DNA of 64,000 nt from an uncultured Methylomirabilota bacterium (GCA_963705305.1 OY970067.1:2112001-2176000), one strand, 5' to 3'. Numbered from the stretch's first letter, positions 7,689 to 43,629 are shown. The notes: a model not told the origin generated them from the sequence alone. Made by a program: numbers and translations.

Positions 7689-9011
7689 TCATCCCTTCTT
7701 GCGCCATGCCTCCAGACGCTTGCGAATCTCCCGCTCCAGTCCCCGGTCGGAGGGTCGATAGTAAATGCGCCCTTGCAGCCGCTCCGGCAGATAATCCTGC
7801 TTGACGTAGGCATCCTCGTAGTCGTGGGCGTACTTGTAGCCCTCCCCATAGCCGAGGTCCGTCATCAGGGGTGTGGGAGCGTTCCGGATGTGGAGGGGCA
7901 CCGGTTCGGCGGGAGCTGAGGCCACGTCCGCCTGCGCCGCGCCGAAGGCCTCGTACACGGCGTTGCTCTTCGGCGCGGTGGCCAGGTACGTGACGCACTG
8001 GGCCAGGGCCAGCTCTCCCTCGGGGCTGCCGAGGAAATGGTAGGCCTCCTTGGCGGCCACGGCCAGGGAGAGGGCGGCCGGATCCGCGTTGCCGATATCC
8101 TCCGAAGCGAAGCGGATCAGCCGGCGGGCGATGTAGAGCGGGTCCTCGCCGGAGGCCAGCATGCGCGCCAGCCAGTAGAGGGCGGCGTCGGGGTCGCTGC
8201 CCCGCAGGCTCTTGTGCAGGGCGGAGATGAGGTTGAAGTGCTCCTCCCCCGCCTTGTCGTAAAGGAGGCTGCGGTGCTGGGCGGCCTCCTGGACGATCGC
8301 CGGCGTGACGAGGCCGGTCCGGGCCGAGGCCTCGGCCAGCCGCGCGGCGAGCTCAAGGAGATTCAGCGCCGCCCGGGCGTCCCCGTTCCCCCAGCGCACG
8401 ATGGCCAGCAGGGCGTCCTCGGAAACCTGAAGGCCGCGCCGCCCCAGCCCGCGCTCCGGGTCCGACAGGGCGCGCTCCAGTATGGCCCGGATGTCGGGCT
8501 CGCCGAGCGGGCGGAGGACCAGCACCTTGGCGCGGGAGAGGAGCGGGGCGATCACCTCGAAGGAGGGATTCTCGGTGGTGGCCCCGATGAGCGTGATGGT
8601 GCCGCGCTCGACGTGGGGCAGGAAGGCGTCCTGCTGCGCCTTGTTGAAGCGGTGGATCTCGTCGACGAACAGGACGGTGCGCTGGCCCGCCCCGCGGAGG
8701 CACCGCTCGGCCTCGGCGATGACCTCTTTGATCTCCTTGATGCCCGCGGTGACGGCCGAGAAGGGAATGAAGGCGGCCCGGACATGGGAGGCGACGAGCA
8801 TGGCGAGGGAGGTCTTGCCGGTCCCCGGCGGGCCCCAGAAGATCAGCGAGGGAACCTCGCCCTGCTCCAGAGCCACCCGCAGGATCTTCCCGGGGGCTAG
8901 CAGGTGCGGCTGTCCGACGAACTCCTCCAGCGTCCGGGGGCGCATCCGATCGGCCAGCGGCGCCCCCCGCCGGGGTGGAGGAGATTCGCGCGGGAACAGC
9001 TCCAGGCTCAT
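7689..9011 (-). CDS. rarA: Replication-associated recombination protein A (MgsA/RarA AAA+ ATPase)
   Basis: Motifs PLADRMRP, GPPGTGKT, VDEIHRFNKAQQD, GATTENPSF and SALHKSLRGSDPD. Confidence 0.95.
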   Translation of the reverse strand: MSLELFPRESPPPRRGAPLADRMRPRTLEEFVGQPHLLAPGKILRVALEQGEVPSLIFWGPPGTGKTSLAMLVASHVRAAFIPFSAVTAGIKEIKEVIAEAERCLRGAGQRTVLFVDEIHRFNKAQQDAFLPHVERGTITLIGATTENPSFEVIAPLLSRAKVLVLRPLGEPDIRAILERALSDPERGLGRRGLQVSEDALLAIVRWGNGDARAALNLLELAARLAEASARTGLVTPAIVQEAAQHRSLLYDKAGEEHFNLISALHKSLRGSDPDAALYWLARMLASGEDPLYIARRLIRFASEDIGNADPAALSLAVAAKEAYHFLGSPEGELALAQCVTYLATAPKSNAVYEAFGAAQADVASAPAEPVPLHIRNAPTPLMTDLGYGEGYKYAHDYEDAYVKQDYLPERLQGRIYYRPSDRGLEREIRKRLEAWRKKG

Positions 9012-9082
9012 CGGTTCATCCGTACGGTCGATCCCGAGCGCTCGTGTAGTGCGTCCAGCGCTTCTTTCCTCGTGCGAGGCCT

Positions 9083-9202
9083 TCATGTCGGCAAATGCCG
9101 GCATCCAGGGCGCCTGTTCCGTCATTCCGGCGGATGCCAGAATCCAGGGATCCCCCCTGCGATCCAGTTCACGCTCTGGGCCCCGGTTTTCACCGGGGTG
9201 AC
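9083..9202. repeat. REP-like palindrome cluster
   Basis: TCATGTCGGCAAATGCCGGCATCCAG, GTCATTCCGGCGGATGCCAGAATCCAG and the inverted CTGGGCCCCGGTTTTCACCGGGGTGAC. Confidence 0.7.
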
Positions 9203-9219
9203 GAAAGACGGTCCCGGTG

Positions 9220-9287
9220 AGCGCGTACGTCGCAGCGCCGCGGGAGCGCGGCAACGCCGCAGATGGGGCTTTTTCAGCAGCGTGCTA
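9220..9287 (-). mobile_element. MITE-like repeat, copy D (left-end fragment)
   Basis: Reverse strand reads TAGCACGCTGCTGAAAAAGCCCCATCTGCGGCGTTG. Its TAG is the pyrE stop. Confidence 0.75.
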
Positions 9288-9893
9288 AAAGCGCACCGAG
9301 GCGATGAATGCCATGCACCGGTCGAACTGCTCGCCGGAGATGCGACCGGCGTCGCGCAGGTATGTCAGCACCGCCGAGATTCGGAGCGCGCGATGCAGCG
9401 CGTACCCTTTCTCCTGGAGGCGGTCGGCGCCGCCCTGCTCGCGATCCAGGAAGACGACGAAGTCCCGCACCGTGAGCCCCGCCTCGCGGAGCGGCTCGGC
9501 CGCCTCGAACTTGCTGGCGCCGTCGGTGATCACATCGTCGAGCATGACGACGACCTCGCCGGGCGCGAACTCTCCCTCGATGGCCCGCCGGATGCCGTGC
9601 TCCTTGATCTCCTTCCGCGCGTAGAGCATGGGGAAGTGCCCGGCCAGCGCCACGGCGGTGGCGATGGGCAGGCCGGCGTACGGGATGCCGGCGATCCGGT
9701 CGAAACGGAGGGGGCGCAGGACCTCCAGCAGGCGAAGGGCCAGCGCCTGAAGCACTGAAGGATGAGAGATGACGACGCGGAGGTCCACGTAGAAGGGGGA
9801 AAGGGCGCCGGATTTCAGCCGGAACTCTCCAAAGGTGATGGCCCGGATCCGGAACAGATCCTCCACCAGTTGTCCGTCGGCTTCAGTCAGCAT
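9285..9893 (-). CDS. pyrE: Orotate phosphoribosyltransferase
   Basis: Motifs [22 protein letters not shown] and the PRPP-binding motif [11 protein letters not shown]. Confidence 0.93.
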
Positions 9894-9934
9894 CTCGATC
9901 CTCGCTGGTACGGGGTCGACGGGGCAGACGGCGA

Positions 9935-10663
9935 TCAGGCGTGATCCCGTGCGGCGGCGCACTCCGCGGCGATCTCCCGCGCCGCTGCCGCCGGGTCGGG
10001 CGCGGCCAGGATGGGACGGCCGACGACCACGTAATCCGCCCCGGCCCGGATGGCCTCGCCCGGGGTGAGCACGCGCCGCTGGTCCTGCTGCTCCGACCGG
10101 GCCGGCCGGACGCCGGGCGTCACGATCAGGAAGTCCGGCCCGCACGTCTGCCGCAGGAGCGCAATCTCGTGCGGCGAGGCCACCACGCCGTCGAGCCCGG
10201 CGGCTCGCGCCGCCTCTGCCAGGTGCCGCACCTGCTCGGGCAGGCTCCGCATCGTTCCGAGCGCGGCCTGGAGGCCGGCCTGGTCCAGGCTGGTCAGGAC
10301 CGTCACGGCCAGGAGGAGCGGACGTGAGCCGTCCGCGCGCGGGGTGGAGGCCGCGCCGGCTGCGGCCTGCAGCATGGCCGACCCGCCGCTGGCGTGCACG
10401 TTCAGCATCCACACGCCCATCTCCGAGGCCGAACGGACGGCGCCGGCCACGGTGTTGGGGATGTCGTGGAACTTGAGGTCGAGGAAAACCCGGAGGCCGA
10501 GCTCGTGCATGGCCCGGACGGCCGTCGGACCCTGGGCGGTGAACAGCTGGCTCCCGATTTTGACGGCGGCCACGTGCGGGGCCAACAGGCGGGCCAGATC
10601 GGCCGCCGCGGCCAGCGTGGGGACGTCCAGGGCGGCGATCACTCGGTTGTCGGCAGTGGGCAT
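9935..10663 (-). CDS. pyrF: Orotidine-5'-phosphate decarboxylase
   Basis: Motifs [25 protein letters not shown] and VVGRPI. Confidence 0.96.
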
Positions 10664-10859
10664 TCACGGCTCCTGTAGATACAGTCACGAATTCGTCGAG
10701 CGTCCGGTCGCGCGGTGCCTTCCCGATATGTTGTGCAGCCGGCCGATGACCCGACGGTCGCATTGCCCGAGCGCCCGGCTTGAAGCGAAGGCTACCACGG
10801 AGGCGGAACGGGCGTCAACGAACGGCAGGGGGTGGCGGTATCCGGTCCCGAACATCTCA

Positions 10860-10931: not shown

Positions 10932-11016
10932 CTCAATAAATTCAGTTTGAACTTGACAAACCAATGATTCGATAATTAGCCTAAATTTGCAAATAACATA
11001 AAGGAGGGTCACGGCC

Positions 11017-11586
11017 GTGTCCGACGAAAGACCTCTGAGTACCGGTGAAGTGGCATGGCTCCTCCACGTGACGCCGGTCGCCGTCCTGGGCTGGATCCGA
11101 GCCGGCAAGCTCAAAGCCTACCGCGTGCCCGGCGGGCGGCACCGGATTCCCCGGGCGGAATTCCGGAAATTCCTCTCCGATAACCACATTCCCCTCACGC
11201 TGGACGGACCGCTCCCCAAGCGCGTTCTGGTCGTGGACGACGAGCCCTCGGTGCGGGAGGCCTTTGAGGCCGTTTTGCAGGGCAAGGGGTACGAGGTGAT
11301 ATTGGCGGCAGACGGGCGCGAGGCCCTCAAGATTCTCGGAGCGGGCCACTTCGATCTGATCTTCCTCGACATGCTCCTCCCCAACCTCAGCGGCGGCTCG
11401 CTCATCCGGGCCATCAAACGCCGGGATCCCGAGGCCCTGGTGGTGATCATCACCGGCTTCCCGCATCACGAAGAGACGCTGGCCGCACTGGCGCACGGAC
11501 CGGCCATGCTGCTGGCAAAGCCGGTCAAGGTCTCGAACATTGAGGCGGTCCTCAAGATCGCGTTCAGGGAGCCGCGCGCCGACTGA
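11017..11586 (+). CDS. Response regulator with N-terminal excisionase-type HTH and C-terminal receiver domain
   Basis: LSTGEVA...WIRAGKLKAYRVPGGRHRI is the HTH. The receiver shows VLVVDDE, FLDMLLP, IITG and KP. Confidence 0.88.
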   Translation: MSDERPLSTGEVAWLLHVTPVAVLGWIRAGKLKAYRVPGGRHRIPRAEFRKFLSDNHIPLTLDGPLPKRVLVVDDEPSVREAFEAVLQGKGYEVILAADGREALKILGAGHFDLIFLDMLLPNLSGGSLIRAIKRRDPEALVVIITGFPHHEETLAALAHGPAMLLAKPVKVSNIEAVLKIAFREPRAD

Positions 11587-11722
11587 GCCCCGGCGCGGAA
11601 CAGATCCGGCCGGCCGGCAGCGATCACCCGTTCCCAAGGCGGGCGGTCGCCGGAGTCGAATCTTTGACGGACCCTTCGCGGCGCGTCGCACCATACGGCT
11701 GCCTGAAGGGGGGACAGCCGAC

Positions 11723-12391
11723 ATGCCTCTGATCGGGACCCTGCGCGACGTGAGCCTTCCCAGCCTGGTGCAGCTGCAGTGCATTGAGCGCCAGCGCGCC
11801 CAGATCTCTCTGGTCTGGGGGACCTGCGAGGGCCGGCTGGTCTTTGCGGACGGGGAGTTGATCTTCGCCAGTGTCGAGAACCTGAGGGGGGAGGAGGCGG
11901 TCCACGAGCTGCTCACGTGGGAGGATGCGGAGTTCCGCGTCGACTACGAGCCGACGAGCACGGAGCGGAATGTCAATACGCCGTGGGTGGCCCTCATTCT
12001 TGACGGGGTCCGCCGTCTGGACGAAGCGCGGGCCGAGCGCGACGAGCGGCTGGAGTCCCGGCTGCGGAGCCTGCGGGGCACCCACGGCCTGCGGGGAGGC
12101 GTGCTGGTCAGCGGCGCCGGGCGCGTGCGGGCGTCGGCTGCGGAGGGGCAGGCAACGGCCGAGGCGGCTCTGGTCGCCTTCGTGGCGGGCCGGCTGGAGG
12201 GCATCGGAGCGGCGCTGGCCTGCGGGCCGCTCGCGGAGGCTCTGCTCTCCGGGCCGGCGGAGAAGCTATGGATCACGAAAAAGGACGGCTCCTATCTGGG
12301 CTGCTGGCTGGACACACGGGCCTCGCTCCCTTCCGTGACGGGGCTCCTCCAGCCGTATCTTTCGCCTGATCGGGGGGCCGAAACGGTATGA
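11723..12391 (+). CDS. DUF4388 (PATAN-like) domain plus C-terminal Roadblock/LC7-like domain
   Basis: LIGTLRDVSLPSLVQL...GRLVFADGELIFA...GEEAVHELLTWEDAEF. C-terminal GLRGGVLVSGAGRV... matches the roadblock pattern. Confidence 0.75.
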   Translation: MPLIGTLRDVSLPSLVQLQCIERQRAQISLVWGTCEGRLVFADGELIFASVENLRGEEAVHELLTWEDAEFRVDYEPTSTERNVNTPWVALILDGVRRLDEARAERDERLESRLRSLRGTHGLRGGVLVSGAGRVRASAAEGQATAEAALVAFVAGRLEGIGAALACGPLAEALLSGPAEKLWITKKDGSYLGCWLDTRASLPSVTGLLQPYLSPDRGAETV

Positions 12392-12434
12392 ACAATTGGC
12401 GCTGGCGCTGTCCGTCATTGTCGAGGAGGCCGCG

Positions 12435-13448
12435 ATGATTTTCCCTAAAGGCGAAGTGATGTACGAGCACCTGAACACGACGTTTACCCAGATCGACGCC
12501 ATGCTCGGCGAGCTGAAGGCCACCCGGTTTACGGGCTACATCCAGCTGACGGCGCGGGATTACCTCGGCATTCTGCTCATCGGCGAGGGGGAGATCGCCG
12601 GCGCCATTGAGGAGACCGGCGGCCGGCGGACGAACGACGGCTCCTCCATCGAAGGCGTGCTGGCCAAGGCGCGCGAGCGGGACGGGCTACTGAGCGTCTT
12701 TCGGCTACCTGGGGAACTGGTCCGCCTGATGGGAAATTTCCTCCACGGCGAGCCCCTCTACAAGAATTTGACGAGCGACCTCACGAGCCTGGATCGACTC
12801 ATCGCGGGCCTGCAGGGTCGAGGCCACAGCGGTCACGTCGAGGTGCAGCTCTCGAAGAGCGGCGATAGCGGGACCGTTTTCCTGTGGGAGGGAAAGGTCC
12901 TGGAGAGCGTCTTCGACTGCCAGGGCGAGACCGCCGCCGGTGCAGGGGTGCTGGAAGAGCTCGTGCGCGCTGCGGCGGCCGAGGGGGCAGCGTTCAACGT
13001 GTACGGCTTGCCACCCGCGCCCCCTCAGGCGGCGGCGAAGGCCCCCGAGGGTGCGGGACTGCAGGAACAGCTGGGTTTGTGGCAGGAGGTGCTCAAGACC
13101 GTCGAGAGCGCGGTGGACGGCGCGACGAAGGCGGGCGCCTTCCAGGCGGCGTTCAGGCGCGCCTGCGTCGAGCTGGCGGAGACATTCCCATTCCTCGATC
13201 CGTTCGCCGCAGAGTTCGAGTATCACGAGGGGCGGGTCCGATACGACGGGCAGGCTGCCGCGGCCGTGGTCAATCAGGGGCTCTGCCGGGCGCTGGGGCG
13301 GAGCCTGCGGATGCTGGCCGGCCAGCCGGGCGGTCGCGACCTGGCGGGACGAATTACCTCGGCCGCCAATAGTCTGAAAAAGCGGTACGGCGGGCGGCTG
13401 GCGGAGATCGGGGCGGCGGACGCACTGGCCGACGCATTCGGGGCCTGA
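12435..13448 (+). CDS. Hypothetical protein with two tandem PATAN/DUF4388-like repeats
   Basis: Internal repeat YEHLNTTFTQIDAMLGELKATRFTGYIQL...GILLIGEG vs YKNLTSDLTSLDRLIAGLQGRGHSGHVEV...GTVFLWEG. RBS GAGGAGG. Confidence 0.7.
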   Translation: MIFPKGEVMYEHLNTTFTQIDAMLGELKATRFTGYIQLTARDYLGILLIGEGEIAGAIEETGGRRTNDGSSIEGVLAKARERDGLLSVFRLPGELVRLMGNFLHGEPLYKNLTSDLTSLDRLIAGLQGRGHSGHVEVQLSKSGDSGTVFLWEGKVLESVFDCQGETAAGAGVLEELVRAAAAEGAAFNVYGLPPAPPQAAAKAPEGAGLQEQLGLWQEVLKTVESAVDGATKAGAFQAAFRRACVELAETFPFLDPFAAEFEYHEGRVRYDGQAAAAVVNQGLCRALGRSLRMLAGQPGGRDLAGRITSAANSLKKRYGGRLAEIGAADALADAFGA

Positions 13449-13463
13449 GGCGGCGGGGACGGA

Positions 13464-13979
13464 ATGGCGAATATCGTCACACAAGAGGCCTCCTCGGCCT
13501 GGAGCGGAGGGCGGCTGCTCCGCCTCAAAGAGCGGTGCCAGGGAGTGCTCGAACAGCTCGCACAGGTCCCCGGTGTGGACGGGGCCTGCCTCTGCGACAA
13601 TCATGGGGCCGTGGTCGGCATGCTGCTGCCTGCCGGATGGAACCGGCGACTGTTCGAACGGATCGGACTCGCCCTCTGCCAGTGCTGGGCCGCCATGCAT
13701 GCGCGGTGGCCGCTCAAGGGCTGCGAGGTCCGGTTCGAGGGCAAGGTGGTGGTGGCGCGCGATCTGGGCAACGCCCTCGCCGTGGCGGTGTGCGGCCCCG
13801 ACGCGAACCTGCCCATCCTGCGGATGGCGCTGAATGTCGCCGCCAATCCCTTCGAGACGGACGCCGAGCTCCAGCGCGACCTGGCGGGCGCGGCGCCCTT
13901 GCGAGCGAAGACGCTGAGCCGGGAGCTGGATGGTCCGGCCCGTACGCTGTTGGAGAAAGGGGGACTCAAAGCCGTCTGA
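13464..13979 (+). CDS. Roadblock/LC7 (MglB-like) domain protein
   Basis: LEQLAQVPGVDGACLCDNHGAVV...EVRFEGKVVVARDLGNALAVAVC...NLPILRMALNVAA. Confidence 0.7.
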   Translation: MANIVTQEASSAWSGGRLLRLKERCQGVLEQLAQVPGVDGACLCDNHGAVVGMLLPAGWNRRLFERIGLALCQCWAAMHARWPLKGCEVRFEGKVVVARDLGNALAVAVCGPDANLPILRMALNVAANPFETDAELQRDLAGAAPLRAKTLSRELDGPARTLLEKGGLKAV

Positions 13980-14069
13980 GGTCTCGAGACGTGGACAGGC
14001 GGGTTCGGTCCGCAGCCCCGGACGCACTCATGAAGGATACGGCGGGGCGAACGGAAGGAGGTGACGCTC

Positions 14070-14543
14070 ATGGTGGCGGCAGGCAACCTTTCCCGCGTGA
14101 TCTTCAAGCTGGCCAACAAGGAGCTGTCAGGTGAGGTCACGCTGACACCCGCGACCTGGCGCGTGCTGGTGCAGTTTGACGGCGTCCGCACCGTGGCCGA
14201 GATCGCCCGGGCCCTGGGGATGGAGGAGTCGGCGGTGGCGCAGGTGGCCGACAAGCTCTCCCGGTCCGGCATCCTTCAGGTGGCCACGGGCGGCGGCGGA
14301 CCAGCGCGCCCCACGATCAACGGGGCGTTCTTCGACCAGCTCCTGGCTGAGTTCGCCCGGGTCATCGGCCCGCTGGCCGAATTCACCCTGGAGGACGAGA
14401 TCGGCTCGATGGGCGAAAGCCGGGAGGGCTTCCCGCGGGATCGGATCCCGGAGCTGGTCGAGCGTCTCAGCCAGGCGGTTCCGGATGAGGCCCGCCGGGT
14501 GAAGTTCCAGCAGATCATGTTGGGGGCGATCCGAAAGATATAA
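14070..14543 (+). CDS. Winged-helix protein with a helical C-terminal domain
   Basis: WRVLVQFDGVRTVAEIARALG (wHTH); C-terminal ARVIGPLAEFTLED...FPRDRIPELVERL. RBS AGGAGGT. Confidence 0.7.
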   Translation: MVAAGNLSRVIFKLANKELSGEVTLTPATWRVLVQFDGVRTVAEIARALGMEESAVAQVADKLSRSGILQVATGGGGPARPTINGAFFDQLLAEFARVIGPLAEFTLEDEIGSMGESREGFPRDRIPELVERLSQAVPDEARRVKFQQIMLGAIRKI

Positions 14544-14603
14544 CCCCCCGGAGGTCAATGCCGGAGCACTCGCCCGGCATGCGATCATCGAAAGGAGAGC
14601 GCT

Positions 14604-15881
14604 GTGGCAACGACAACCGCATCGGCAATCGAGGCGCCTGCCGTCCAGGAACGGGGGGGTCACTGGTCGCTCGGCCAGTGGCGTCTGCGGTCCAAAATGA
14701 TTCTGATCCTCCTGCTGGTCTCCCAGATTCCGCTCATTGCGGTCGCCGCGTTCACGATCTACATGGCGCGCGGGGCCCTGCTCCATCAGGCCAGCATCAA
14801 CATGCTGGGGGTCGGGTCCGAGGTGGCGCGGGAGCTCGATCACCAGCTGCTGGGGTGGCAGGAGGACATCGTCACCGTGAGCCAGCTCCCCGAAGTGGTG
14901 GCGTACGCCATGAGCCCATCCGACGCATGGGGGCAAATCGCCCTGGCCTCCCTCAAGGCGGAGGCGTCGCGGAAGAACTACGGCTCCATCGCGGTGGTCA
15001 ATCGCGAGGGGAAGATCATCCTGTCCTCCGCCCCCGGAGACGTGGGGACGGATGTCTCGTTCCGCCCGTATGTGATCGAGGCCCTCAAGGGCAAGGCCTA
15101 CATCTCGGATCCGTCGGTCTCCGTGATCACCAACAAGCCCTCCATCTTCACCAGCGCCCCGGTGCGTGACAGCAACAATCAGGTGATCGCGGTGGTCCGC
15201 AGCCGGCTCGACCTGTACGGGCTCTGGGATCTCGTCGAGCAGGCGGCCCAGCAGTCGGTTCCCGGGACCGTGGCCATGCTGCTGGACGACCACGGGATCC
15301 GCATCGCCCACAGCGCCAGCAAGGGGAACCGGGAAGGGGTGGTGAAGACCCTGCTGTATCGTGCGGTGGCTCCGCTCGACCCGGAGACGACGAAGCAGAT
15401 CGTGGCCGAGAAGCGCTTCGGCACGGCCACCACCGAGCGGGTGAATGTCCTGCCGCTCCCCCAGGTGGCGGCCGCCATCAAGGCCCGCGCGGCGACGACC
15501 TTCGAGGCCGCGGCCGACAACAGCACCGTATCCCACCAGTCCGCGTCGGTGCCGCTGCAGGCCATGCCCTGGCACCTGGTGCTGCAGGCGCCGGATCCGT
15601 CCTTCACCAGCGCCGCCGTCCGAATGACCCAGGTCACGGCGGCCGCCGCCGGCCTCTTCGCCCTGCTGATCGTCCTGGTGGCGATCCTGATCGCCCGGGG
15701 AGTCACCCGCCCCGTCATGCAGCTGACCGAGGTGGCGGACCGCATCAGCCTGGGCGAGCTGAGCGCCAAGATCGAGATCGAGCGCAAGGACGAGATCGGC
15801 GATCTGGCCGAGGCGCTGCGGCGGATGCAGACCAGCCTGCAGGCCGCCATCGAGCGCCTGCGGACCCGGCGCACGACCTGA
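14604..15881 (+). CDS. Membrane sensor, TM-Cache-TM-HAMP, with no cytoplasmic output domain
   Basis: Two TM segments; dCache-like DVSFRPYVIEALKG...ISDP...APV; HAMP TRPVMQLTEVADRISLGEL...DEIGDLAEALRRM; stop follows shortly after. Confidence 0.8.
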   Translation: MATTTASAIEAPAVQERGGHWSLGQWRLRSKMILILLLVSQIPLIAVAAFTIYMARGALLHQASINMLGVGSEVARELDHQLLGWQEDIVTVSQLPEVVAYAMSPSDAWGQIALASLKAEASRKNYGSIAVVNREGKIILSSAPGDVGTDVSFRPYVIEALKGKAYISDPSVSVITNKPSIFTSAPVRDSNNQVIAVVRSRLDLYGLWDLVEQAAQQSVPGTVAMLLDDHGIRIAHSASKGNREGVVKTLLYRAVAPLDPETTKQIVAEKRFGTATTERVNVLPLPQVAAAIKARAATTFEAAADNSTVSHQSASVPLQAMPWHLVLQAPDPSFTSAAVRMTQVTAAAAGLFALLIVLVAILIARGVTRPVMQLTEVADRISLGELSAKIEIERKDEIGDLAEALRRMQTSLQAAIERLRTRRTT

Positions 15882-16078
15882 CCTCGACGGGGGTGCCCGC
15901 GGCCTGAAGGCGGGACCCCGCGCTCGACAATATGGACTGCCGACGGCAGTCGCCTGCGGCCCTCCGGATTCCTTCATCGGGGGGCCGCGGTCTTTTCGGC
16001 GGAGGCGGCCGGGGCTGCCGGCGCCTCCCTGCGCTGCCGTCGTTGACACGGCCCCTCTCCTCGGCTTACAGTTCGCGT

Positions 16079-17254
16079 ATGCGCCACCCATGGAAAGCCG
16101 CCCTGGGCCTCCTGATCGGCGTGAGCCTGGCGGGCGGGCCGGTGTGCGCCCAAGACCCCGCTCCCGCTATCCGGGCAACCATGGGGGTGGCCGGCGATCT
16201 GCTGCTCAACCTGGATGCGGACCGGGCCGAGGTCGAGTGCTCGCGCCTACTGGCCCTGCCCGAAGGAGAGGCCGCCGGCCGGTTCTGCCTGGGCGTGACG
16301 GCGCTGACCCGGGCCGGGGAAATGGACGATCCGGATCCGGACCTGGATCGCTTTCTGGATCAGGTAGCCCGGGCCATTGCCGCCGGCCAACGCCTGGAGC
16401 AGACGCGGCCCGCCGATCCCGAGGTGAAGCTGCTGCTGGGGCTAAGTCACGGAAGCCAGGCACTGGTGCAGAGCGGCCGGGGGCACTACGTCGCCGCCTG
16501 GCAGGCCCTGCGGGACGGTCTGCGCTGCTTCCAAGAGGCGCTGGCGCTGGATCCGTCCCTGACGGATGCCTACTACGGAATCGGCCTCTACGATTATGCC
16601 TTGGGACGCCTGCCCGGCCTCCTGCGGCCGGCCGTGGGCCTGGTGCTGGCGCGCGGGGATGCGACCCAGGGGTTGCAAGAGCTGGAGCGGGTGGCCGAGG
16701 GCGGAGCCTATCTCAAGATGACGGCCCGACTGGCCCTCCTGGAGCTGTACGCAGGACAGGAACACAGGTACACCGAGGCCCTACGGCTGGGTCGCGATCT
16801 CCTGGGGCGCTACCCAGGCAATCCGGATGTGTACTTCGCCACGGCCTCTGCCGCCTCGGAGCTGGGGCGGTTTCCCGAGGCCCTGGCGATCGCCCGCCGT
16901 GCGGGGGAGAACATCGCGGCCGGCGCGCCGCATTTCCCGCCGGCGCTCCGGTCCCGCTACGAGCAGCTCCTGGGGAAGATCTACATGGACCAGGGGGAGT
17001 ACGCCGCCGCCCTGCGGTTCTTCCAGCAGGCGGTTGAAACCCCCACGCCGCCGCGCTACCGCTGGGTGACCGCCTGGGCATGGACCCGGTCGGGAATGAT
17101 CTTCGACCTGGAGGGAGACCGGGCGGAGGCCGAGCGGCGATACCGCGAGGCCCTGGCGATTCCCACCGACGCCCCGGCCAAGGACGTGGCCCGGCAGTAT
17201 CTGGAGAACCCCTATCGAGGGCGGCCGGGCTCCGCCCGGCTTCCGACTCGGTAA
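16079..17254 (+). CDS. Exported tetratricopeptide-repeat protein
   Basis: N-terminal signal peptide; TPR-like ALALDPSLTDAYYGIGLY and LLGKIYMDQGEYAAALRFFQQA. Confidence 0.75.
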   Translation: MRHPWKAALGLLIGVSLAGGPVCAQDPAPAIRATMGVAGDLLLNLDADRAEVECSRLLALPEGEAAGRFCLGVTALTRAGEMDDPDPDLDRFLDQVARAIAAGQRLEQTRPADPEVKLLLGLSHGSQALVQSGRGHYVAAWQALRDGLRCFQEALALDPSLTDAYYGIGLYDYALGRLPGLLRPAVGLVLARGDATQGLQELERVAEGGAYLKMTARLALLELYAGQEHRYTEALRLGRDLLGRYPGNPDVYFATASAASELGRFPEALAIARRAGENIAAGAPHFPPALRSRYEQLLGKIYMDQGEYAAALRFFQQAVETPTPPRYRWVTAWAWTRSGMIFDLEGDRAEAERRYREALAIPTDAPAKDVARQYLENPYRGRPGSARLPTR

Positions 17255-17284: not shown

Positions 17285-18871
17285 ATGCCGAAGCGAGGTA
17301 AGGAACACCGCGGGGAAGACGCCGCCGACCACCTGGTCAGGCACTCGCGCCGATCGCACCCCTGGCTCCTGCACGCCGTGATCTTCGTGTGCGGCGGCGT
17401 CCTCATGGCTCTCGAGATCGTGGGAAGCCGCGTGCTGGCTCCCTACTTCGGCAACTCGATCTTCGTCTGGGGAAGCCTCATCAGCGTCGTCCTGGCGGCC
17501 CTGTCCCTCGGCTACTGGCTGGGCGGGATGGCGGCGGATCGGTGGCCGCGCTACTCCGTCCTGGCAGGGCTGATCGGCGTCCCCGGGCTCATGATCGGGC
17601 TTCTCCCCTTTGTGTATCCCGCCCTGAACCAGGCGATCGCGACGAGCGAGCTGGGGGCGCGGCTGGGCCCGCTGCTGTCGTGCCTGGTGCTGTTCCTCCT
17701 TCCCAGTGTGTTTCTGGGGACGATCTCGCCGTTCGCCGTTCGCCTCCAGGCCAGGGCGGTGGCCTCGGTGGGGACCACGGCGGGGGGCCTGTACGCGGTC
17801 TCCACGGCCGGGAGCATCGCCGGCACGCTGCTCACGGCCTTCTACCTCATCTCGGTCCTGGGCGTCGCCAACATCGTCCACGGCCTAGGATTCGTGCTGC
17901 TGATCGTGGCCGTGGTCGTCTTCCTGGCGGAGCGACGGCGGCTGGGGGCCGGCCTGGCGATGATCACGCTCGCCATCCTCCTGGCGGCGGTCGTGTGGGC
18001 GGCCAGGACGCGCGCGGCGGAGCCGGGCCTGCTGCTGGACACGGACTCCTTCTACAACCACATCCGGGTGTCCGACGAGGGCGGGAGCCGCTACCTGGAC
18101 TTCGACAACCTCCGGCAGAGCGGCATGCTCCAGTCCAACCCCTGGGAGCTGCAGCTTCGCTACACCCGGTTCCTGGCGCTGGCGCTGACCCTGCAGCCCG
18201 ATCCCCGCCGGGTGCTGGTGATCGGCCTGGGCGGGGGATCGTTCCCCAAGCGGCTCTACCGGGATTTCCCGCAGATCACGGTGGACGTGGCGGATATCGA
18301 TCCGGCGGTCCGGCGCATCGCCACCCGGTACTTCCAGGTGCCGCAGGACGGCCGGATGCGACTCCACGTCCAGGACGGACGGCGCTTCGTCCAGGAGAGC
18401 GACGCCGCGTACGATGCGGTCTTCCTGGACGCCTACAACTCCGACACCATCCCCTTCCACCTGGTGACGCGGGAGTTCTACCAGGCCGTTCGGGCGCGGC
18501 TGGCCCCCGGCGGGGTCGTCGTCTCGAACATCATCGGCAGCCCGTACGGCCCCCGCAGCGGTTTCTTTCGGGCGATCTACCGGACGCTGGCCACGGTCTT
18601 CCCGACGGTCTACGTGGTCCCCACCTACGATACGCGAAACGGGCTGTTCCTGGGAGACATCAACATCATCCTGCTGGCCACGCAGGAGTCTGCCCGCCTG
18701 AGCCGGGGCGAGCTGATCGCGCGGGCGGGACGCGCGGAAGGCAAGCTGGTCCCGGCCTCGGATCTGGCCGAGTACGCCTCCTACCTCGTGGAAGCGCCCA
18801 TCCCGGTTGGCGACGTTCCCCTCCTTACCGACGACTTCGCCCCGGTCGAGCTCCTGCGGGAGGCGTCCTGA
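17285..18871 (+). CDS. Fused MFS-like membrane domain / spermidine-synthase-like SAM-binding domain
   Basis: N-terminal TMs (MALEIVGSRVLAPYFG); VLVIGLGGGS, DGRRFV, VFLDAY and LTDDFAPVE. Confidence 0.85.
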   Translation: MPKRGKEHRGEDAADHLVRHSRRSHPWLLHAVIFVCGGVLMALEIVGSRVLAPYFGNSIFVWGSLISVVLAALSLGYWLGGMAADRWPRYSVLAGLIGVPGLMIGLLPFVYPALNQAIATSELGARLGPLLSCLVLFLLPSVFLGTISPFAVRLQARAVASVGTTAGGLYAVSTAGSIAGTLLTAFYLISVLGVANIVHGLGFVLLIVAVVVFLAERRRLGAGLAMITLAILLAAVVWAARTRAAEPGLLLDTDSFYNHIRVSDEGGSRYLDFDNLRQSGMLQSNPWELQLRYTRFLALALTLQPDPRRVLVIGLGGGSFPKRLYRDFPQITVDVADIDPAVRRIATRYFQVPQDGRMRLHVQDGRRFVQESDAAYDAVFLDAYNSDTIPFHLVTREFYQAVRARLAPGGVVVSNIIGSPYGPRSGFFRAIYRTLATVFPTVYVVPTYDTRNGLFLGDINIILLATQESARLSRGELIARAGRAEGKLVPASDLAEYASYLVEAPIPVGDVPLLTDDFAPVELLREAS

Positions 18872-18954: not shown

Positions 18955-19632
<678 letters not shown>

Positions 19633-19706
19633 GATCGGGCCGGGGGCCCGGACGGTGCGGGATCCCCCTTCGAGGAAGAGGGGACGGCCCCGGGCGGAGG
19701 TGGACC

Positions 19707-20639
<933 letters not shown>

Positions 20640-20668
20640 GGCGGTTCGAGGGGCGGCGGGCGAGAAGT

Positions 20669-20696
20669 CTCGGACCTCGGACCGCGAACAGCGAGC
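20669..20696. repeat. Degenerate heptamer run between pyrB and pyrC
   Basis: CTCGGAC CTCGGAC CGCGAAC AGCGAGC. Confidence 0.55.
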
Positions 20697-20705
20697 GGAG
20701 CGAGC

Positions 20706-22007
20706 ATGCGAATCCTCATCGAAGGCGGACGGGTGGTCGATCCGGCGAACGGACGTGATGCGGCGCTAGATCTGGTGATCGAGGACGGGCGCATCGCCGA
20801 GGTGCGCGCTCCCCAGCCGGGGATCCCGGGTTGCCCGCGGCCGGAATGCGATCGGGTGCTGGACGCCCGGGGCAAGGTGGTCTGTCCGGGCTTCGTGGAC
20901 GTGCACGTTCACCTGCGCGAGCCGGGTCGCGAGGATATGGAGACCATCGCCAGCGGGACGCGCGCGGCGGCGCGCGGCGGCTTCACCTCGGTCTGCTGCA
21001 TGCCCAACACCAGCCCGGTCAACGACAACCAGTCGGTGACCGAGTTCATCCTGGACCGGGCACGCAAGGAGGCGGCGGTCAACGTCTTCCCCATCGGAGC
21101 CATTAGCAAAGGACAGCAGGGGGAGGAGCTGGCGGAGATCGCGGAGGTGGTCGGCGCCGGCTGCGTGGCCATCTCCGACGACGGCAAGCCGGTCATGAAC
21201 GCCGAGCTCATGCGTCGCGCCCTGGAATATGCCAGCATGTTCGACATCCCGGTGATCCAGCACGCCGAGGACGCGCACCTCACCGGGAAAGGGGTGATGC
21301 ACGAGGGCCGGGTGAGCACGCAGCTGGGGCTGAAAGGCATCCCGGCCGCCTCGGAGGCGGTCATCGTGGCGCGGGACATCCTGCTGGCAGAGCTCACCGG
21401 GGGCCACTACCACGTGGCCCATGTCAGCACCGCCGAGGCCATCCAGCTGATCCGGGACGCCAAGGCCAGGGGCCTCCACGTGACCTGTGAGGTCGCCCCC
21501 CACCACTTCGCCCTGACCGACGAGGCCATCTGCAGCTTCGACACCAATGCCAAGATGAGTCCCCCGCTGCGGTCGGCCCGCCACGTGGCGGCGCTCAAGG
21601 CGGCCCTGGCCGACGGGACGATCGACGCGATCGCCACGGATCATGCCCCGCACGTGATTCAGGACAAGGAGGTGGAGTTCGACTACGCGGCCAACGGGGT
21701 GGTGGGGCTGGAGACGGCCTTCGGCCTCGTCATGACGGTTCTGGTGGAGGGCGCGGTGCTGAGCCTGCCGCAGGCTGTCGCGCGGATGACCTGCGAGCCG
21801 GCCCGCGTCTTCCGTCTGGCCAAGGGGACGCTGAGCGTGGGGGCGGACGCGGACGTGACCATCGTGGATCCGGCCCGGGAGTGGACGGTGGACGTCAAGC
21901 AGTTTGCCTCCAAGGCGAGGAATTCCCCCTTCCACGGCTGGAAGCTGCGGGGGCAGGTGCTGTGCACCATCGTGGGAGGCAAGGTCGTGTGGGAGCTGCA
22001 GGGATGA
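20706..22007 (+). CDS. pyrC: Dihydroorotase (type I)
   Basis: Motifs [21 protein letters not shown] and IATDHAPH. Confidence 0.95.
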
Positions 22008-22035
22008 GGCGGCGCCGCGGGGAGCGGGCATGGGG

Positions 22036-23301
22036 ATGAAGCCGGCACTGCTGGCCCTGGCCGACGGGACCATCTTCGAGGGACGATCCTACGGGGCCGA
22101 AGGGGAGGCCGTCGGCGAGGTGGTCTTCAACACCTGCATGAGCGGGTACCAGGAGATCCTCACCGACCCGTCCTACAAGGGGCAGATCGTCACGATGACG
22201 TATCCCCTCATCGGCAACTACGGCGTCAATCCGGAAGACGTCGAGTCCCGGCGGCCGTTCGTGGAGGGCTTCGTTATCAAGGAGGGAAGCCCCCTGGCCA
22301 GCAACTGGCGGGGACGCCAGCCCCTGGAGGCCTTTCTCCGCGACCACGGGATCGTGGCCATCCAGGGGATCGATACGCGGGCCCTGACCCGTCACATCCG
22401 GGATCACGGCGCGCAGGAAGGGGTCGTCTCCACCGCCGACCCGGATCCCGGCAGCCTGGTTGCCAAGGCCAAAGGGTCGCCCGGGCTGATCGGCCGGGAT
22501 CTGGTCAAGGAAGTCTCCTGCCAGCAGCCGTTCGGCTGGAGGCAGGGGGTCTGGGAATGGCCGCGCGGCTACGCGGACGGGAGCGTCGCGCACCCCGAGC
22601 CGCGGAGCGACGCGGCGCAGCTCGGCCTGTTCGCCGCTCGCGGGGCGCAGCGCGGGACTCGCTATAAGGTGGTGGCCTACGATTGCGGCATCAAGTGGAA
22701 TATCCTGCGGCAGCTGGTCAGTGCCGGATGCGACGTGACGGTAGTGCCGGCCGGGACGACCGCGGACGAGGCCCTGGCCCTCCAGCCGGACGGCGTCTTC
22801 CTGTCCAACGGACCGGGCGATCCGGAAGGGGTCCCGTACCTCATCGAGGCGGTGCGCGGCCTCCTCGGCAGGCGGCCCATCTTCGGCATCTGCCTGGGGC
22901 ACCAGATCCTCGGGCTGGCCCTGGGGGGCCGCACCTACAAGCTGAAGTTCGGGCATCACGGCGGGAATCAGCCGGTGAAGGACCTGACCACCGGCAAGGT
23001 GGAGATCACCTCGCAGAACCACGGGTTCGCCGTGGACATGGCGTCGTTCCGGGAGGCGCCGCGCGACCTCCTGCTCGGCGGCCCGGAGGACGTCGTCCTC
23101 ACCCATGTGAATCTCAACGACCGGACCTGCGAGGGCCTCATGCACCGGCGGCTGCCCGTGTTCTCGGTGCAGTACCACCCCGAGGCCTCGCCCGGTCCCC
23201 ACGACGCCAGCTACCTCTTCCGGCGGTTCGTCGGGATGATGGAGCGGGAGCGGGGAGGAGACGTATCCTCGCCGTCGGCGGGACTCCAGAAGGGGGGATA
23301 G
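22036..23301 (+). CDS. carA: Carbamoyl-phosphate synthase small subunit
   Basis: Motifs [23 protein letters not shown] and [12 protein letters not shown]. Alternative start at 22030. Confidence 0.96.
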
Positions 23302-23421
23302 GATGTCGGACCGCCCCACGGAAAACAGCAGCGGATGGAGGAATTGGTCCACAAGCGGCGGGGCTGACCGCCGGACGCACCAACTGAATGTGAATTTTGC
23401 ATATTGGGGTCAGGAGAAGGT

Positions 23422-23625
23422 ATGAAGACGAAACGGAAGGAGCCAGAGATTGTTCTGCGGAATGGAAAGCCTGCAGCGGTGATCCTCGATATCGAGAAAT
23501 ACCGAGAAATGCTGGAGAGACTTGAGGACGTGGAGGACCTGAAAGCTCTGGCCGCAATGCGCAAGGGGCAGCTTCACTTCGTGCGGCTTGAAGATTTCTT
23601 GAAGGAGTATTCGCCGCGTGCATGA
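23422..23625 (+). CDS. Type II antitoxin, Phd/YefM-like
   Basis: IVLRNGKPAAVILDIEKY pattern; overlaps the start of the toxin gene. Confidence 0.8.
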   Translation: MKTKRKEPEIVLRNGKPAAVILDIEKYREMLERLEDVEDLKALAAMRKGQLHFVRLEDFLKEYSPRA

Positions 23626-23872
23626 TGTCCTGCTCGAACGGGCGGCCCAGCGAGATCTGAAAGGCCTCCCCGCGGCAGAATTCGCGCGGGTGGTAGCCAG
23701 AATCCGGGGACTGGTGGGTAACCCGCGGCCGCCAGGCTCGCGCAAGCTCAGGGGCTCGCAAAGCGATTGGCGTCTCAGGATTGGCGACTATCGAGTCATT
23801 TATGAGATCGACGATGGGGCTAAAGTTGTTCGCGTGATGCGAGTGAGGCATCGATCAGAAGCGTACCGCTAG
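23618..23872 (+). CDS. Type II toxin, RelE/ParE family
   Basis: NPRPPGSRKLRG...WRLRIGDYRVIYEID...VRHRSEAY. Confidence 0.9.
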   Translation: MHDVLLERAAQRDLKGLPAAEFARVVARIRGLVGNPRPPGSRKLRGSQSDWRLRIGDYRVIYEIDDGAKVVRVMRVRHRSEAYR

Positions 23873-24281
23873 GCCAGTTCGGTAAATTGACGTCGCGCGT
23901 GCGATTTTAGGTCTTCACGAAGCCGAATCTCTGGTTGTTCTAGGTTAAGCATTGGCATGAGCCAGGCGGTGAGTGTGCGTAGGTCGTTCGTTGGTCGGAT
24001 GAATGTCGAACCCATTCCGTCGCCCTCCCGGTCTGCCTTAGGCAACTTGTTCGCGAACGTGAGGAGTGAGTTGCGCGGGGGAACCCCGATGCCGCTGGAA
24101 GTCTTGGCCTCCAACTGTATGCAGAGCATTTTCGTGGCGCGGCACCATAGAATCGAGGGTGAACACTGGATTATCCTGAGATACAGAAGGGTGCTGGCTT
24201 GCCGAGTCGCCCGAGTCCTTGCGATTCCGGTGTATTATCCCATCGATCTATTCAGCCTTGCCGATGGCAGCGGAGCCCGCA

Positions 24282-27533
<3,252 letters not shown>

Positions 27534-27542
27534 GGATCGTGC

Positions 27543-28439
27543 GTGCGCGCAACCATCGCGTTCAACCGGCGGCTGTCGGCCGCCTACCTGCACCTGGGGG
27601 TCAGCGCGCCGGGATTCCCGAAGGAATTCCGGGCGGGGCAGTTCGTCATGGTGCGTCCCCCGTGGGTCGGCGATCCTTTCCTGCCCCGGCCATTCTCCAT
27701 CTATCGCCTCTCGGCGGGGCGGGCCGCCGAAACCCATCTCGGGGAGGCGATTCCCATCGTCGAGGTTCTGTACAAGGTGGTGGGGAAGGGGACGCAGTAT
27801 CTGGCCCGGCTGGAGCCGGGACAGGCGGTGGAGCTTCTGGGCCCGCTGGGCAACGGCTTTGCGCCGCCGGCTCGCGGGGAGTCGGCCGTCCTGGTGGCGG
27901 GGGGCATCGGGGTGCCGCCCATCGCCGCGGTGGCGAGGGAAATTCGAAATTCGAAATTCGAAATTCGAAGTGTCCATGTGTTTCTGGGTGGGAAGACGGC
28001 CGAGGACATTCTCTGCCTCAAAGACTTTGAGGAGGCGGGCACATCCGGCGTGCACGTTACCACCGAGGACGGCAGTCTGGGGACCCGCGGCCTCATCACC
28101 GACCTCCTGGCTCCATTCCTGGCGTCCTGGTTGGGGACCGGCGCGGCGGCGCTCGGGCCGCCCGGCAGCCGGGAAGGGGCGGACCGGCGGAATACCGGGT
28201 CGCCGGATTCTCCTCCGGCGATCCGGCTGTACACCTGCGGCCCCCCCGGGATGCTGGCGGCCGTGGCCTGCCTGGCGGAGGCTTGCCGGGTGCCCTGCCA
28301 GGTCTCCGTCGAGGCGAACATGGCCTGCGGCTTCGGGGCATGCATGGGCTGCGCCGTCGAGCGCCGGGGCGAAGAGCGAAGTTACCGGCTGGTCTGCAAG
28401 GACGGCCCGGTGTTCGATTCGCGGGAGCTGGTATGGTGA
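27543..28439 (+). CDS. pyrK: Dihydroorotate dehydrogenase electron-transfer subunit
   Basis: Motifs GQFVMV, RPFSI, GPLGNGF, GGIGVPP, MACGFGACMGC and VCKDGPVF. Confidence 0.92.
   Translation: MRATIAFNRRLSAAYLHLGVSAPGFPKEFRAGQFVMVRPPWVGDPFLPRPFSIYRLSAGRAAETHLGEAIPIVEVLYKVVGKGTQYLARLEPGQAVELLGPLGNGFAPPARGESAVLVAGGIGVPPIAAVAREIRNSKFEIRSVHVFLGGKTAEDILCLKDFEEAGTSGVHVTTEDGSLGTRGLITDLLAPFLASWLGTGAAALGPPGSREGADRRNTGSPDSPPAIRLYTCGPPGMLAAVACLAEACRVPCQVSVEANMACGFGACMGCAVERRGEERSYRLVCKDGPVFDSRELVW
27943..27970. repeat. Heptamer tandem repeat (TTCGAAR)x4 inside pyrK
   Basis: TTCGAAA x3 plus TTCGAAG, translated as EIRNSKFEIRS. Confidence 0.9.
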
Positions 28440-43039: not shown

Positions 43040-43629
43040 GAAGTCCTCACAGAATAACAGCCCATCTGCTGAACCCGTCTGGACTCTGGAAACACAAGGA
43101 CTTACAGAGGGGGACTGACGAAGTGGGGATGTTATATGCTTTTCGCATAACACCCCGTGGATTGCAGGAGAGCAATCGGGCGAACCATCAGTGGGAGTGT
43201 ATCGCCGGGCTCACGGGCTGTCAACCACAATCCCGCCCCGTCGCAGCAGCCTGGCCGCTTACCAAACATGTTGACAGGCCGGACCGCAGGAGGCACCGGT
43301 GTGGAGAATTACACTCCCATTACCACAGGTTACGGCGCGCCCGCGCGGCGGGATGGCTGCGGAAGAATTGTTCCGGGAATGGCCAATTCTCCTCTGGCAT
43401 GCAAATCGTGCGCTTCCCTACAAATCGCACGGTGGCATCAACATTTTGGTGAACGGCTAGCGCAGGAACAGGAGGGGCGGAAAATATTCCCTGTAGGGCG
43501 TTGTTGACGGAGTGGAATTATCTGCCCGCCGTCCGCCGGGCGACGGGTAGGACGCGAGGTGCGGTCACCTGGGGCATCGACTAGAGAGGTGGAAGACTCC
43601 ACCGCCCGCCCGGTCGAGGTGGACGCTTC

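Follow-up and report, generated by a model that had tools for sequence, protein, structure and literature searches.

The stretch of DNA analysed here, called the window in the following, comprises 64,000 nucleotides (nt) from an uncultured Methylomirabilota bacterium (GCA_963705305.1 OY970067.1:2112001-2176000). At positions 11017-15881 it contains six codirectional open reading frames (ORFs) on the + strand, named g1 to g6, which are separated by intergenic gaps of 15 to 136 nt and show the G+C content at third codon positions (GC3) and the codon-position bias of real genes, in a window with a G+C content of approximately 0.63-0.71 (2-kb steps). An earlier note on this DNA, made from the sequence alone, had regarded the six genes as a candidate signalling system lacking a kinase or GTPase, in which an output-less sensor signals through its HAMP tail to a scaffold of Roadblock and PATAN proteins. 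Our analysis identifies g2-g6 (11723-15881) as a conserved module, the recurrence of which is far above chance. The six genes are:

11017..11586, + strand: g1, helix-turn-helix domain (HTH_17, E 3.1e-10) and receiver domain (Response_reg, E 1.5e-23), both by Pfam
11723..12391, + strand: g2, PATAN domain (DUF4388, 11723-12037) fused to a Roadblock/LC7 domain (12050-12391)
12435..13448, + strand: g3, the module's signature protein, with a pair of PATAN-like alpha/beta domains followed by a helical domain at the C-terminus
13464..13979, + strand: g4, Roadblock/LC7-like with a helical extension at the C-terminus
14061..14543, + strand: g5, winged helix (residues ~25-80) and STAC-like four-helix domain (residues 87-160, 14319-14543)
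14604..15881, + strand: g6, transmembrane helix, periplasmic dCache_1, transmembrane helix, HAMP (15687-15845) and an 11-residue end, without output domain

The starts adopted for g2 (ATG 11723) and g3 (ATG 12435) replace the alternatives TTG 11540 and TTG 12396 of the ORF lister, and the one of g2 agrees with the start positions of its homologs. The N-terminus of g2 matches DUF4388/PATAN (PF14332) at E 1.4e-16, with 61 bits against a cut-off of 25, and the profile of its C-terminal 110 amino acids (aa; A4) matches solved Roadblock/LC7 structures (7f8f_A 3e-6, 7f8m_A 1.4e-4, 9jue_D 0.0046). Solved Roadblock proteins are also matched by the profile A2 of the g4 family (7yh1_D 5.3e-5, 7f8m_A 0.0043); Robl_LC7 is found in 9 of 25 family members, the g4 of the window itself remaining below the cut-off with E 0.023. 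The receiver of g1 has, as read from its sequence, the usual acidic pocket, Thr and Lys residues. Pfam, profile and fold searches bore out the six genes with their named domains, and the fold calls for two Roadblock domains, PATAN, winged helix and the output-less Cache-HAMP sensor hold. When 56 window ORFs were scanned with Pfam (g1-g6 and 50 others, the latter GC3-filtered plus three in other frames over called genes), no family of histidine kinases, P-loop GTPases, methyl-accepting chemotaxis proteins (MCPs) or cyclases was matched, and no kinase partner for g1 was present among them. The claim that neither kinase nor GTPase belongs to the system is therefore correct for the scanned ORFs of the window, but it is not valid for the whole family, four loci of which (L002-L005) carry mglB-mglA.

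Relatives of g3 are encoded at 202 places in contigs from one genome per species, and the best 80 of these 202 were analysed as loci, with taxon names as in the record titles. Gene families at the loci were counted by hidden Markov models built from our own alignments, over all six-frame ORFs and with simple ORF rules. The 80 loci span at least six phylum-level groups (Methylomirabilis, Chloroflexota, Thermodesulfobacteriota/Desulfobacterota, Acidobacteriota, KSB1 and Clostridia), and the families accompany g3 with the following frequencies in all loci and in those flanked by 5 kb or more on each side:

g4-type Roadblock: 74 of 80 loci, 46 of 46 with full flanks
PATAN: 76 of 80 loci, 46 of 46 with full flanks
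g5 family (winged helix-STAC): 69 of 80 loci, 43 of 46 with full flanks
HAMP-tail sensor: 68 of 80 loci, 43 of 46 with full flanks

Joint conservation across phyla applies to g2-g6 but not to g1, which is a local add-on. The domain content of the module is constant, and the gene boundaries shift between lineages. In the window and in L002-L005, PATAN-Roadblock and winged helix-STAC are encoded separately, PATAN is fused to winged helix-STAC in L046, L006, L054, L064 and L074, and the Dehalococcoidia-type loci combine this fusion with a separate small Roadblock protein (134-aa ORF). Moreover, receiver (REC)-PATAN-Roadblock fusions occur in Desulfobacterota-type loci of A3 (L006, L011, L013, L058, L061, L067, L076), and one database protein (P0142) represents a REC-PATAN-g3 fusion. 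Domain fusions are a classical sign of joint action in one complex. Because of their co-occurrence and of the fusions in other lineages, the g5, Roadblock and PATAN proteins probably belong to one complex. Most lineages have adjoining or overlapping g5 and sensor genes (e.g. 1054/1056 in L054 and 7234/7234 in L074), and g5 lies 60 nt upstream of g6 in the window.

The sensor g6 matches dCache_1 (5.6e-20) and HAMP (9e-14, residues 362-414 of 425), 11 residues lie beyond the HAMP, and the protein ends with ...ERLRTRRTT. These two domains are its only Pfam matches, with no MCP signalling domain, HATPase_c or HisKA. By tblastn, 69 of the 80 loci have a HAMP-bearing gene near g3. In 68 of these, the sensor ends 8-13 residues past the HAMP, the exception being L001 with 72 more residues. 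The extracellular parts of the related sensors vary, including dCache_1, a single Cache (sCache), the four-helix bundle 4HB_MCP and parts with no recognised domain. The HAMP tail (A7) has 34-57% identity to that of the window across phyla, 10 invariant residues and a constant ...AIERLRxRR end; the next-best HAMP in the genome of the window reaches 41% identity over 61 residues (E 1e-7). Among solved HAMP domains, the A7 profile ranks Af1503 (4gn0_A 1.4e-14 and 4cq4_A 1.5e-13) above all others. Longer proteins (at least 745 aa) with a g6-type HAMP were found in 0 of 1107 candidates at E<=1e-8, which is weak evidence. Judged from its sequence, g6 is an Af1503-type receptor with HAMP as its sole cytoplasmic part. 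As far as the available text of the CASP11 target paper goes (PMC4834066), Af1503-like receptors have no effector, their HAMP is the only cytosolic part, and they are genomically and translationally coupled to STAC proteins, whose defining members have an LGPx(x)A motif in common, located between helices 1 and 2.

The neighbouring g5 may be the corresponding STAC protein. Its AlphaFold2 model (mean predicted local distance difference test, pLDDT, 81.0) has C-terminal helices at residues 88-102, 106-116, 126-138 and 143-159, and residues 87-159 align with Af1502 (5a1q_B) at Z 7.1, a moderate value in the range common for helical bundles (root-mean-square deviation 3.0, 68 of 68 residues, 19% identity). 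The loop IGPLAE (residues 102-107) lies between helices 1 and 2 at the place of the LGPx(x)A motif; all 16 sequences of the g5 family retain G103 and P104, and the conservation of A106 is at least 90%. The profile A6 of the family reaches Af1502 (5a1q_A) only at E 0.11; because of this value and the moderate Z, the STAC assignment rests on fold, motif and gene context. According to the available text of its authors, Af1502 behaves as a singleton in sequence searches (PMC4834066). On this basis, g5 and g6 may be read as the bacterial counterpart, in extended form, of Af1502 and Af1503.

The winged helix of g5 has a MarR_2 match of its own (1.1e-4), and the profile A6 matches the MarR-type structure 7kua_A (6.6e-5). 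Among structures, the top match of model residues 1-81 is 8hkr_B (Z 9.7), and the other matches are the protein-binding winged helices of GATOR1/SEA subunits with moderate Z scores of 8-9.3. GATOR1/SEA subunits act, jointly with Roadblock and longin domains, as regulators of Rag GTPases; the likeness may be a generic winged-helix resemblance. In addition, 3 of the 16 g5-family members match DUF742 weakly (E 0.0018 or weaker), the g5 of the window not being among them. The DUF742 family is reported to be a GEF (guanine nucleotide exchange factor) in the available text of PMC11343762.

A direct contact between g5 and the HAMP of g6 is predicted. We modelled a HAMP dimer (two copies of A7 residues 34-95) with g5 as partner, together with three controls, and obtained a score of 0.62 (runs 0.62, 0.62 and 0.66) compared to 0.13 for the best of the 3 controls; the score is the model's own confidence, and the use of our own alignments and of a dimer makes its calibration rough. 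The score mark is reached by 116 of 157 solved complexes and by 2 of 215 mismatched pairs. The HAMP-g5 runs agree in at least 97% of the contacts, with a partner pLDDT of at least 73. The predicted interface comprises the loop and its flanking helices on the g5 side (residues 96, 99-109, 112 and 139-141) and residues 51-54, 56, 77-78, 80-82, 84-86, 89-90 and 93 on the HAMP side. It is enriched in conserved positions of both HAMP (9 of 15, expected 3.9, hypergeometric p 0.0013) and g5 (5 of 11, expected 1.1, hypergeometric p 0.0017). The PDB matches contain Af1503 and Af1502 in separate entries, none with both. Hence, docking of g5 on the HAMP of g6 through the loop of its STAC domain is predicted. 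Signalling by contact of the HAMP tail, as proposed in the earlier note, is consistent with this prediction, which passed its controls, but the predicted partner is the STAC domain of g5, the one protein modelled with the HAMP, and not the Roadblock/PATAN scaffold.

The signature protein g3 has no Pfam match of its own in the window version. In its family, DUF4388 is matched by 13 of 21 members (best E 2.3e-12) and DUF2226 by 5 of 21; no DUF2226 match was found in the genome of the window. The AlphaFold2 model (pLDDT 83.8, predicted template modelling score 0.58) consists of two similar alpha/beta domains followed by the helical domain, which bears the invariant motif PFLDPFAAEFEY (alignment A1), and hhalign relates the first domain, and only this one, to PATAN with a probability of 42% (E 2.6e-4). 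The description of g3 as tandem PATAN-like is thus a tentative one, drawn from the family matches and the duplicated fold and not from a direct match of the window protein. Foldseek found nothing in the PDB at E<=0.001, the best Z of VIA-align against 48,161 chains is 6.2, and no solved PATAN structure was found by sequence for comparison. The fold of g3 has no convincing solved counterpart, which does not make the fold new. A protein atlas search with the C-terminal domain returned scores all <0.9, which are leads only. Among 1.84 billion proteins, the family comprises 332 representatives at E<=1e-30, 849 at E<=1e-10 and 1259 at E<=0.001. Two g3-family proteins of ~630 aa (P0081 and P0127) carry a C-terminal DUF547 (2.2e-33 and 4.1e-31), either a fusion or a gene-call artefact.

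One candidate target of the module is the small GTPase MglA. MglA together with an MglB-type Roadblock protein is encoded <=4.2 kb from g3 in 26 of 80 loci (18 of the 46 with full flanks), namely in 4 of 4 of the closest Anaerolineae loci, 8 of 10 from Syntrophobacterales/Thermodesulfobacteriota, 13 of 16 of the Desulfobacterales type and the single one from KSB1. The Anaerolineae/Chloroflexota loci L002-L005 have a window-like gene order and are the closest syntenic loci outside the genus, L002 sharing 44-52% identity with the window over g2-g6; in all four, an MglB-type Roadblock and an MglA-like GTPase lie directly downstream of the sensor. A Pfam scan of the upstream region of L002 revealed a REC-GAF-PAS histidine kinase, an OmpR-type regulator and a REC-Ras fusion, and the latter was also matched in L003-L005 by tblastn. 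This fusion of 341 aa (L002 7169-8194; Ras 4.5e-40, Response_reg 4.8e-19) lies directly upstream of the module, after the kinase and the OmpR-type regulator.

In the genome of the window (G000), MglA has a single match, which shares 52% identity with the cluster-linked MglA of L002. The suggestion of a GTPase encoded elsewhere is true for this genome, with one mglB-mglA pair located ~770 kb away from the module:

contig 1351477-1352055: mglA
contig 1352074-1352565: mglB, preceding mglA and downstream of dnaX-ybaB-recR

All eight aligned MglA-like proteins, the one from the window's genome included, share the TVPGQ signature with Thr78; an MglA of the TxPGQ type with adjacent MglB is thus a feature of the genome and not of the cluster. 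On the side opposite to dnaX-ybaB-recR, mglB-mglA is flanked by genes for a GIY-YIG protein, a resolvase, an HTH_17 protein and a phage-type integrase (L081, G000 contig 1343000-1361000), and these flank genes suggest a mobile element near mglB-mglA. Another locus, L006 from Syntrophobacterales (10035-10806), has an MglB-type Roadblock after g3 and a 105-aa ORF without family in the place of MglA, and its close relatives L007-L010 carry an intact MglA at the equivalent spot. In the genome of L006 (G002), a 46-residue fragment elsewhere (contig 576753-576890) is the sole MglA trace. Altogether, the module family is often, not always, wired to MglA.

Type IV pilus genes (PilMNOP, PilB, PilD or pilin) adjoin the module in 3 of 8 neighbour-scanned loci. 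L013 encodes a PilS/PilR-like kinase and sigma-54 regulator followed by PilM, PilN, PilO and PilP; in L059 the order is PilD, MotA/MotB, MglB, MglA, module, PilB and a pilin-like gene, and in L062 it is MotA/MotB, MglB, MglA, module and PilB. The genome of the window has matches to pilB, pilT-like, pilMNO and pilD elsewhere. For Myxococcus, two PATAN proteins are mentioned to co-occur with the pilus regulator SgmX, without being studied there, in the available text of PMC11580455.

Regarding its distribution, g3 was found in 3 of 201 sampled genomes of the phylum, the genome of the window included, and all three carriers belong to the same genus (3 of 15 sampled, i.e. 2 of 14 others). One relative (G167) shows the same local order of MgsA, pyrF, g1-g8 and hpt; the other (G187) carries g2-g6 alone at a different genomic place, with g1, g7 and g8 not beside the module. 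The protein identity of g2-g6 is 54-73% in the three genomes with their two genomic places. The module thus represents an accessory five-gene unit, which is probably mobile over evolutionary time. The gene g1 was rejected as core part: it has four close paralogs, the module of G187 lacks it as a neighbour, and matches in other phyla are limited to the REC domain. With these paralogs (66-71% protein identity, G000 contig ~141111, 462943, 547679 and 3146960), excisionase-type HTH response regulators form an expanded family in the genome of the window. The two genes downstream of g6 are:

15932-17254: g7, TPR protein with a likely signal peptide
17285-18871: g8, fused MFS transporter/spermidine synthase (NCBIfam NF037959, 5.6e-79)

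Both were discarded as parts of the system, as they are matched in 0 of 80 loci. Consensus matches indicate promoter-like sites at 10947-10976 upstream of g1 and at 16043-16072 just inside the listed g7 ORF, and the sole + strand terminator-like site, likewise a consensus match, lies after g8. A search for transcripts listed no RNA run containing the sequence, and one DNA run contains 0.38 of its words. The module, g7 and g8 are situated amid scattered pyrimidine genes, with pyrE-like and pyrF at 7689-10763 (- strand) and a phosphoribosyltransferase gene, dihydroorotase, carA, carB and pyrK-like at 19063-28439 (+ strand), and G167 has this pyrimidine-gene setting in the same order. Elsewhere in the window, two ORFs with good codon bias, 40097-41914 (+ strand, 605 aa) and 42119-43153 (- strand, 344 aa), match no Pfam family at E<=1e-5.

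Taking these results together, we lean, with some reserve, towards the reading that g2-g6 are one kinase-free transmembrane signalling module acting on MglA/MglB and pili; within this scheme, the part comprising receptor, adaptor and platform is likelier than the MglA/pilus output. A ligand would be bound by the periplasmic double-Cache domain of g6, as its family suggests. HAMP domains change state in signalling, and the state of the HAMP four-helix bundle, as the only cytoplasmic part of g6, would be read through direct contact, with the conserved LGPxxA loop of the g5 STAC domain docking onto it, as predicted. In the cytoplasm, g5 would form a complex with two Roadblock domains, contributed by g4 and by the C-terminal part of g2, and with the PATAN domains at the N-terminus of g2 and in g3. 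The most likely targets of this complex would be the polarity switch MglA/MglB and type IV pili, which we infer because of the neighbourhoods in other phyla and the analogy with MglB, CvnB/CvnC and pilus-motor-binding PATAN regulators. Here, these targets would be encoded elsewhere; mglBA being located at another place of the genome, the GTPase would act in trans. As lineage-specific add-on, g1 may bring in a phosphorylation input or gene control.

Several observations weigh against this reading. MglA is nearby in 0 of 42 Dehalococcoidia-type, 0 of 4 Acidobacteriota and 0 of 2 Clostridia loci; two Acidobacteriota genomes were searched, and MglA is present elsewhere in them. The complete genome of Tepidiforma flava, which has the module, contains no MglA detectable by protein query, Arf family or MglA profile, the same three kinds of query found none in a 4-Mb Chloroflexia assembly, and neither of the two has a Robl_LC7 match. 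In the genus of the window, MglA occurs in 19 of 21 genomes, and the module and MglA do not co-vary within it. Furthermore, the pilus-adjacent loci (L013, L059, L062) are all of the Desulfobacterota type. The receptor side is affected by the moderate structural match of the STAC domain, the weak profile match to Af1502 and the rough calibration of the complex score mentioned above.

If the module acts without a GTPase, it could be a gene switch, in which the receptor keeps g5 at the membrane and the ligand frees or changes g5 for DNA binding, with a further transcriptional arm supplied by g1 and a purely modulatory role of the Roadblock and PATAN proteins. The MarR-like winged helix of g5, the presence of the module in the Tepidiforma flava genome with no MglA found, the adjoining or overlapping genes for g5 and sensor in most lineages and the predicted HAMP-g5 contact are all in line with such a switch. 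However, the structural matches of the winged helix are moderate, with the protein-binding ones of GATOR1/SEA below the top one, the weak DUF742 matches in the g5 family concern a family reported as GEF, the constant retention of two Roadblock and three PATAN domains is left unexplained, and no operator or target genes are conserved beside the module. Hence, we consider the gene switch unlikely. The receptor-STAC pair could also control a transporter, perhaps g8 two genes downstream, which is a fused MFS/spermidine synthase (NF037959) with no terminator-like site before its end. In the available text of PMC4834066, the STAC authors propose a role in solute transport and describe transport genes around Af1503-like receptors. 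Nevertheless, neither g7 nor g8 recurs in any of the 80 loci or accompanies the module in G187, and the scanned neighbourhoods contain no recurring transporter, which makes a regulator of solute transport quite improbable.

The remaining alternative regards the cluster as a decaying remnant of an mglA operon which has lost GTPase and kinase and is no longer functional. It would explain that L002-L005 all keep mglB-mglA, L002 in addition kinase, regulator and REC-Ras, and that the module of G002 retains MglB, with MglA reduced to the fragment elsewhere. But all five genes are intact, their 54-73% protein identity is kept in three genomes of the genus and at two places, and the GTPase-less form is the rule in 42 of 42 Dehalococcoidia-type loci with the invariant residues preserved; decay is thus very hard to believe. 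The same 42 loci speak against the case, raised in the earlier note as one that would undermine it, that related clusters always keep a kinase or GTPase, and, together with the Tepidiforma genome, they rule out a simple loss of the GTPase as the whole story.

Returning to the kinase-free module acting on MglA/MglB and pili, a broader formulation is conceivable. Af1503-type receptors could be the membrane end of a kinase-free pathway resembling G-protein coupling, in which the HAMP is read directly by a STAC adaptor on a Roadblock/PATAN platform. This platform would control an MglA-type GTPase and the pilus motor in their state or location, with another target where MglA is lacking. We regard this generalisation as tentative and rather doubtful. 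If true, it would represent a third general mode of bacterial transmembrane signalling, beside phosphorelay and second-messenger synthesis. HAMP is one of the commonest signalling domains, and Af1503 is the source of the first HAMP structure and has been a model for 20 years. To our knowledge, the output of Af1503-type HAMP-only receptors has never been found. The module offers concrete partners for such receptors, i.e. a STAC adaptor with invariant residues in its predicted interface, two Roadblock and three PATAN domains, and connects these partners in several phyla with the MglA/MglB switch and with type IV pili.

Parts of this picture are already known, namely the HAMP-only receptor with a STAC neighbour, PATAN genes near mglB/mglA, and conservons. 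No description of the joined module was found in the literature searched, nor of the g3 family, the winged helix-STAC and PATAN-STAC fusions or the STAC-HAMP interface; the coverage stops short of the primary STAC paper and supplements, which are possibly relevant. Compared with Af1503/Af1502, the module shares the sensor with transmembrane helices and HAMP as only cytoplasmic part, the Af1503 HAMP as nearest solved relative of the g6 HAMP, and the adjacent gene for a four-helix domain with LGPx(x)A loop, including the tight linkage of receptor and STAC. In contrast, the module is bacterial, its STAC is fused to a winged helix and mostly also to PATAN, and it adds two Roadblock domains and g3 always and mglB-mglA often. 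The Af1503/Af1502 family is described as archaeal and amid transport genes, and Roadblock, PATAN and GTPase are unmentioned in the available text (PMC4834066).

Conservons are described as sensor-Roadblock-DUF742-GTPase systems of Actinomycetota in the available text of PMC13343842; they consist of the sensor kinase-like CvnA, the Roadblock protein CvnB, the DUF742 protein CvnC and the MglA-like GTPase CvnD. The conservon-like character proposed in the earlier note fits in outline, with HAMP sensor, Roadblock, winged-helix protein and, in 26 of 80 loci, a small GTPase of the MglA family. However, g6 is without ATPase/kinase module, two Roadblock and three PATAN domains are present, no GTPase is found in the cluster, and DUF742 is restricted to the weak matches in the g5 family that do not include g5 of the window.

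The MglA/MglB polarity module with PATAN neighbours (Makarova et al. 2006; Wuichet and Sogaard-Andersen 2014, PMC4316618) resembles the present one in PATAN genes beside mglB/mglA, in Roadblock as GTPase regulator and in the link to pilus and gliding. According to the available text of PMC4316618, some Group 1 and Group 5 mglA genes are 'occasionally' near PATAN genes, and in the searchable files of its supplementary table (one file is not searchable) PATAN has 57 mentions and HAMP has none. As far as it is available, that description does not include the HAMP-only receptor, STAC, the g3 family or the second Roadblock, and in the window's genome mglBA is 770 kb away. In a cyanobacterium, binding of PATAN-REC regulators to the pilus motor is reported in the accessible part of 10.1101/2021.06.11.447907. 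Regulators of this PixG/PixE type, which serve in cyanobacterial phototaxis and bind PilB1, share with the module the PATAN as protein-interaction domain linked to type IV pili, and REC-PATAN fusions exist in its Desulfobacterota versions. Whereas they are driven by a chemotaxis-like kinase, no CheA/MCP is present here, and the PATAN of the module is joined to Roadblock or STAC. Hence, the module joins three formerly separate topics: Af1503/STAC, PATAN genes near mglB, and conservons.

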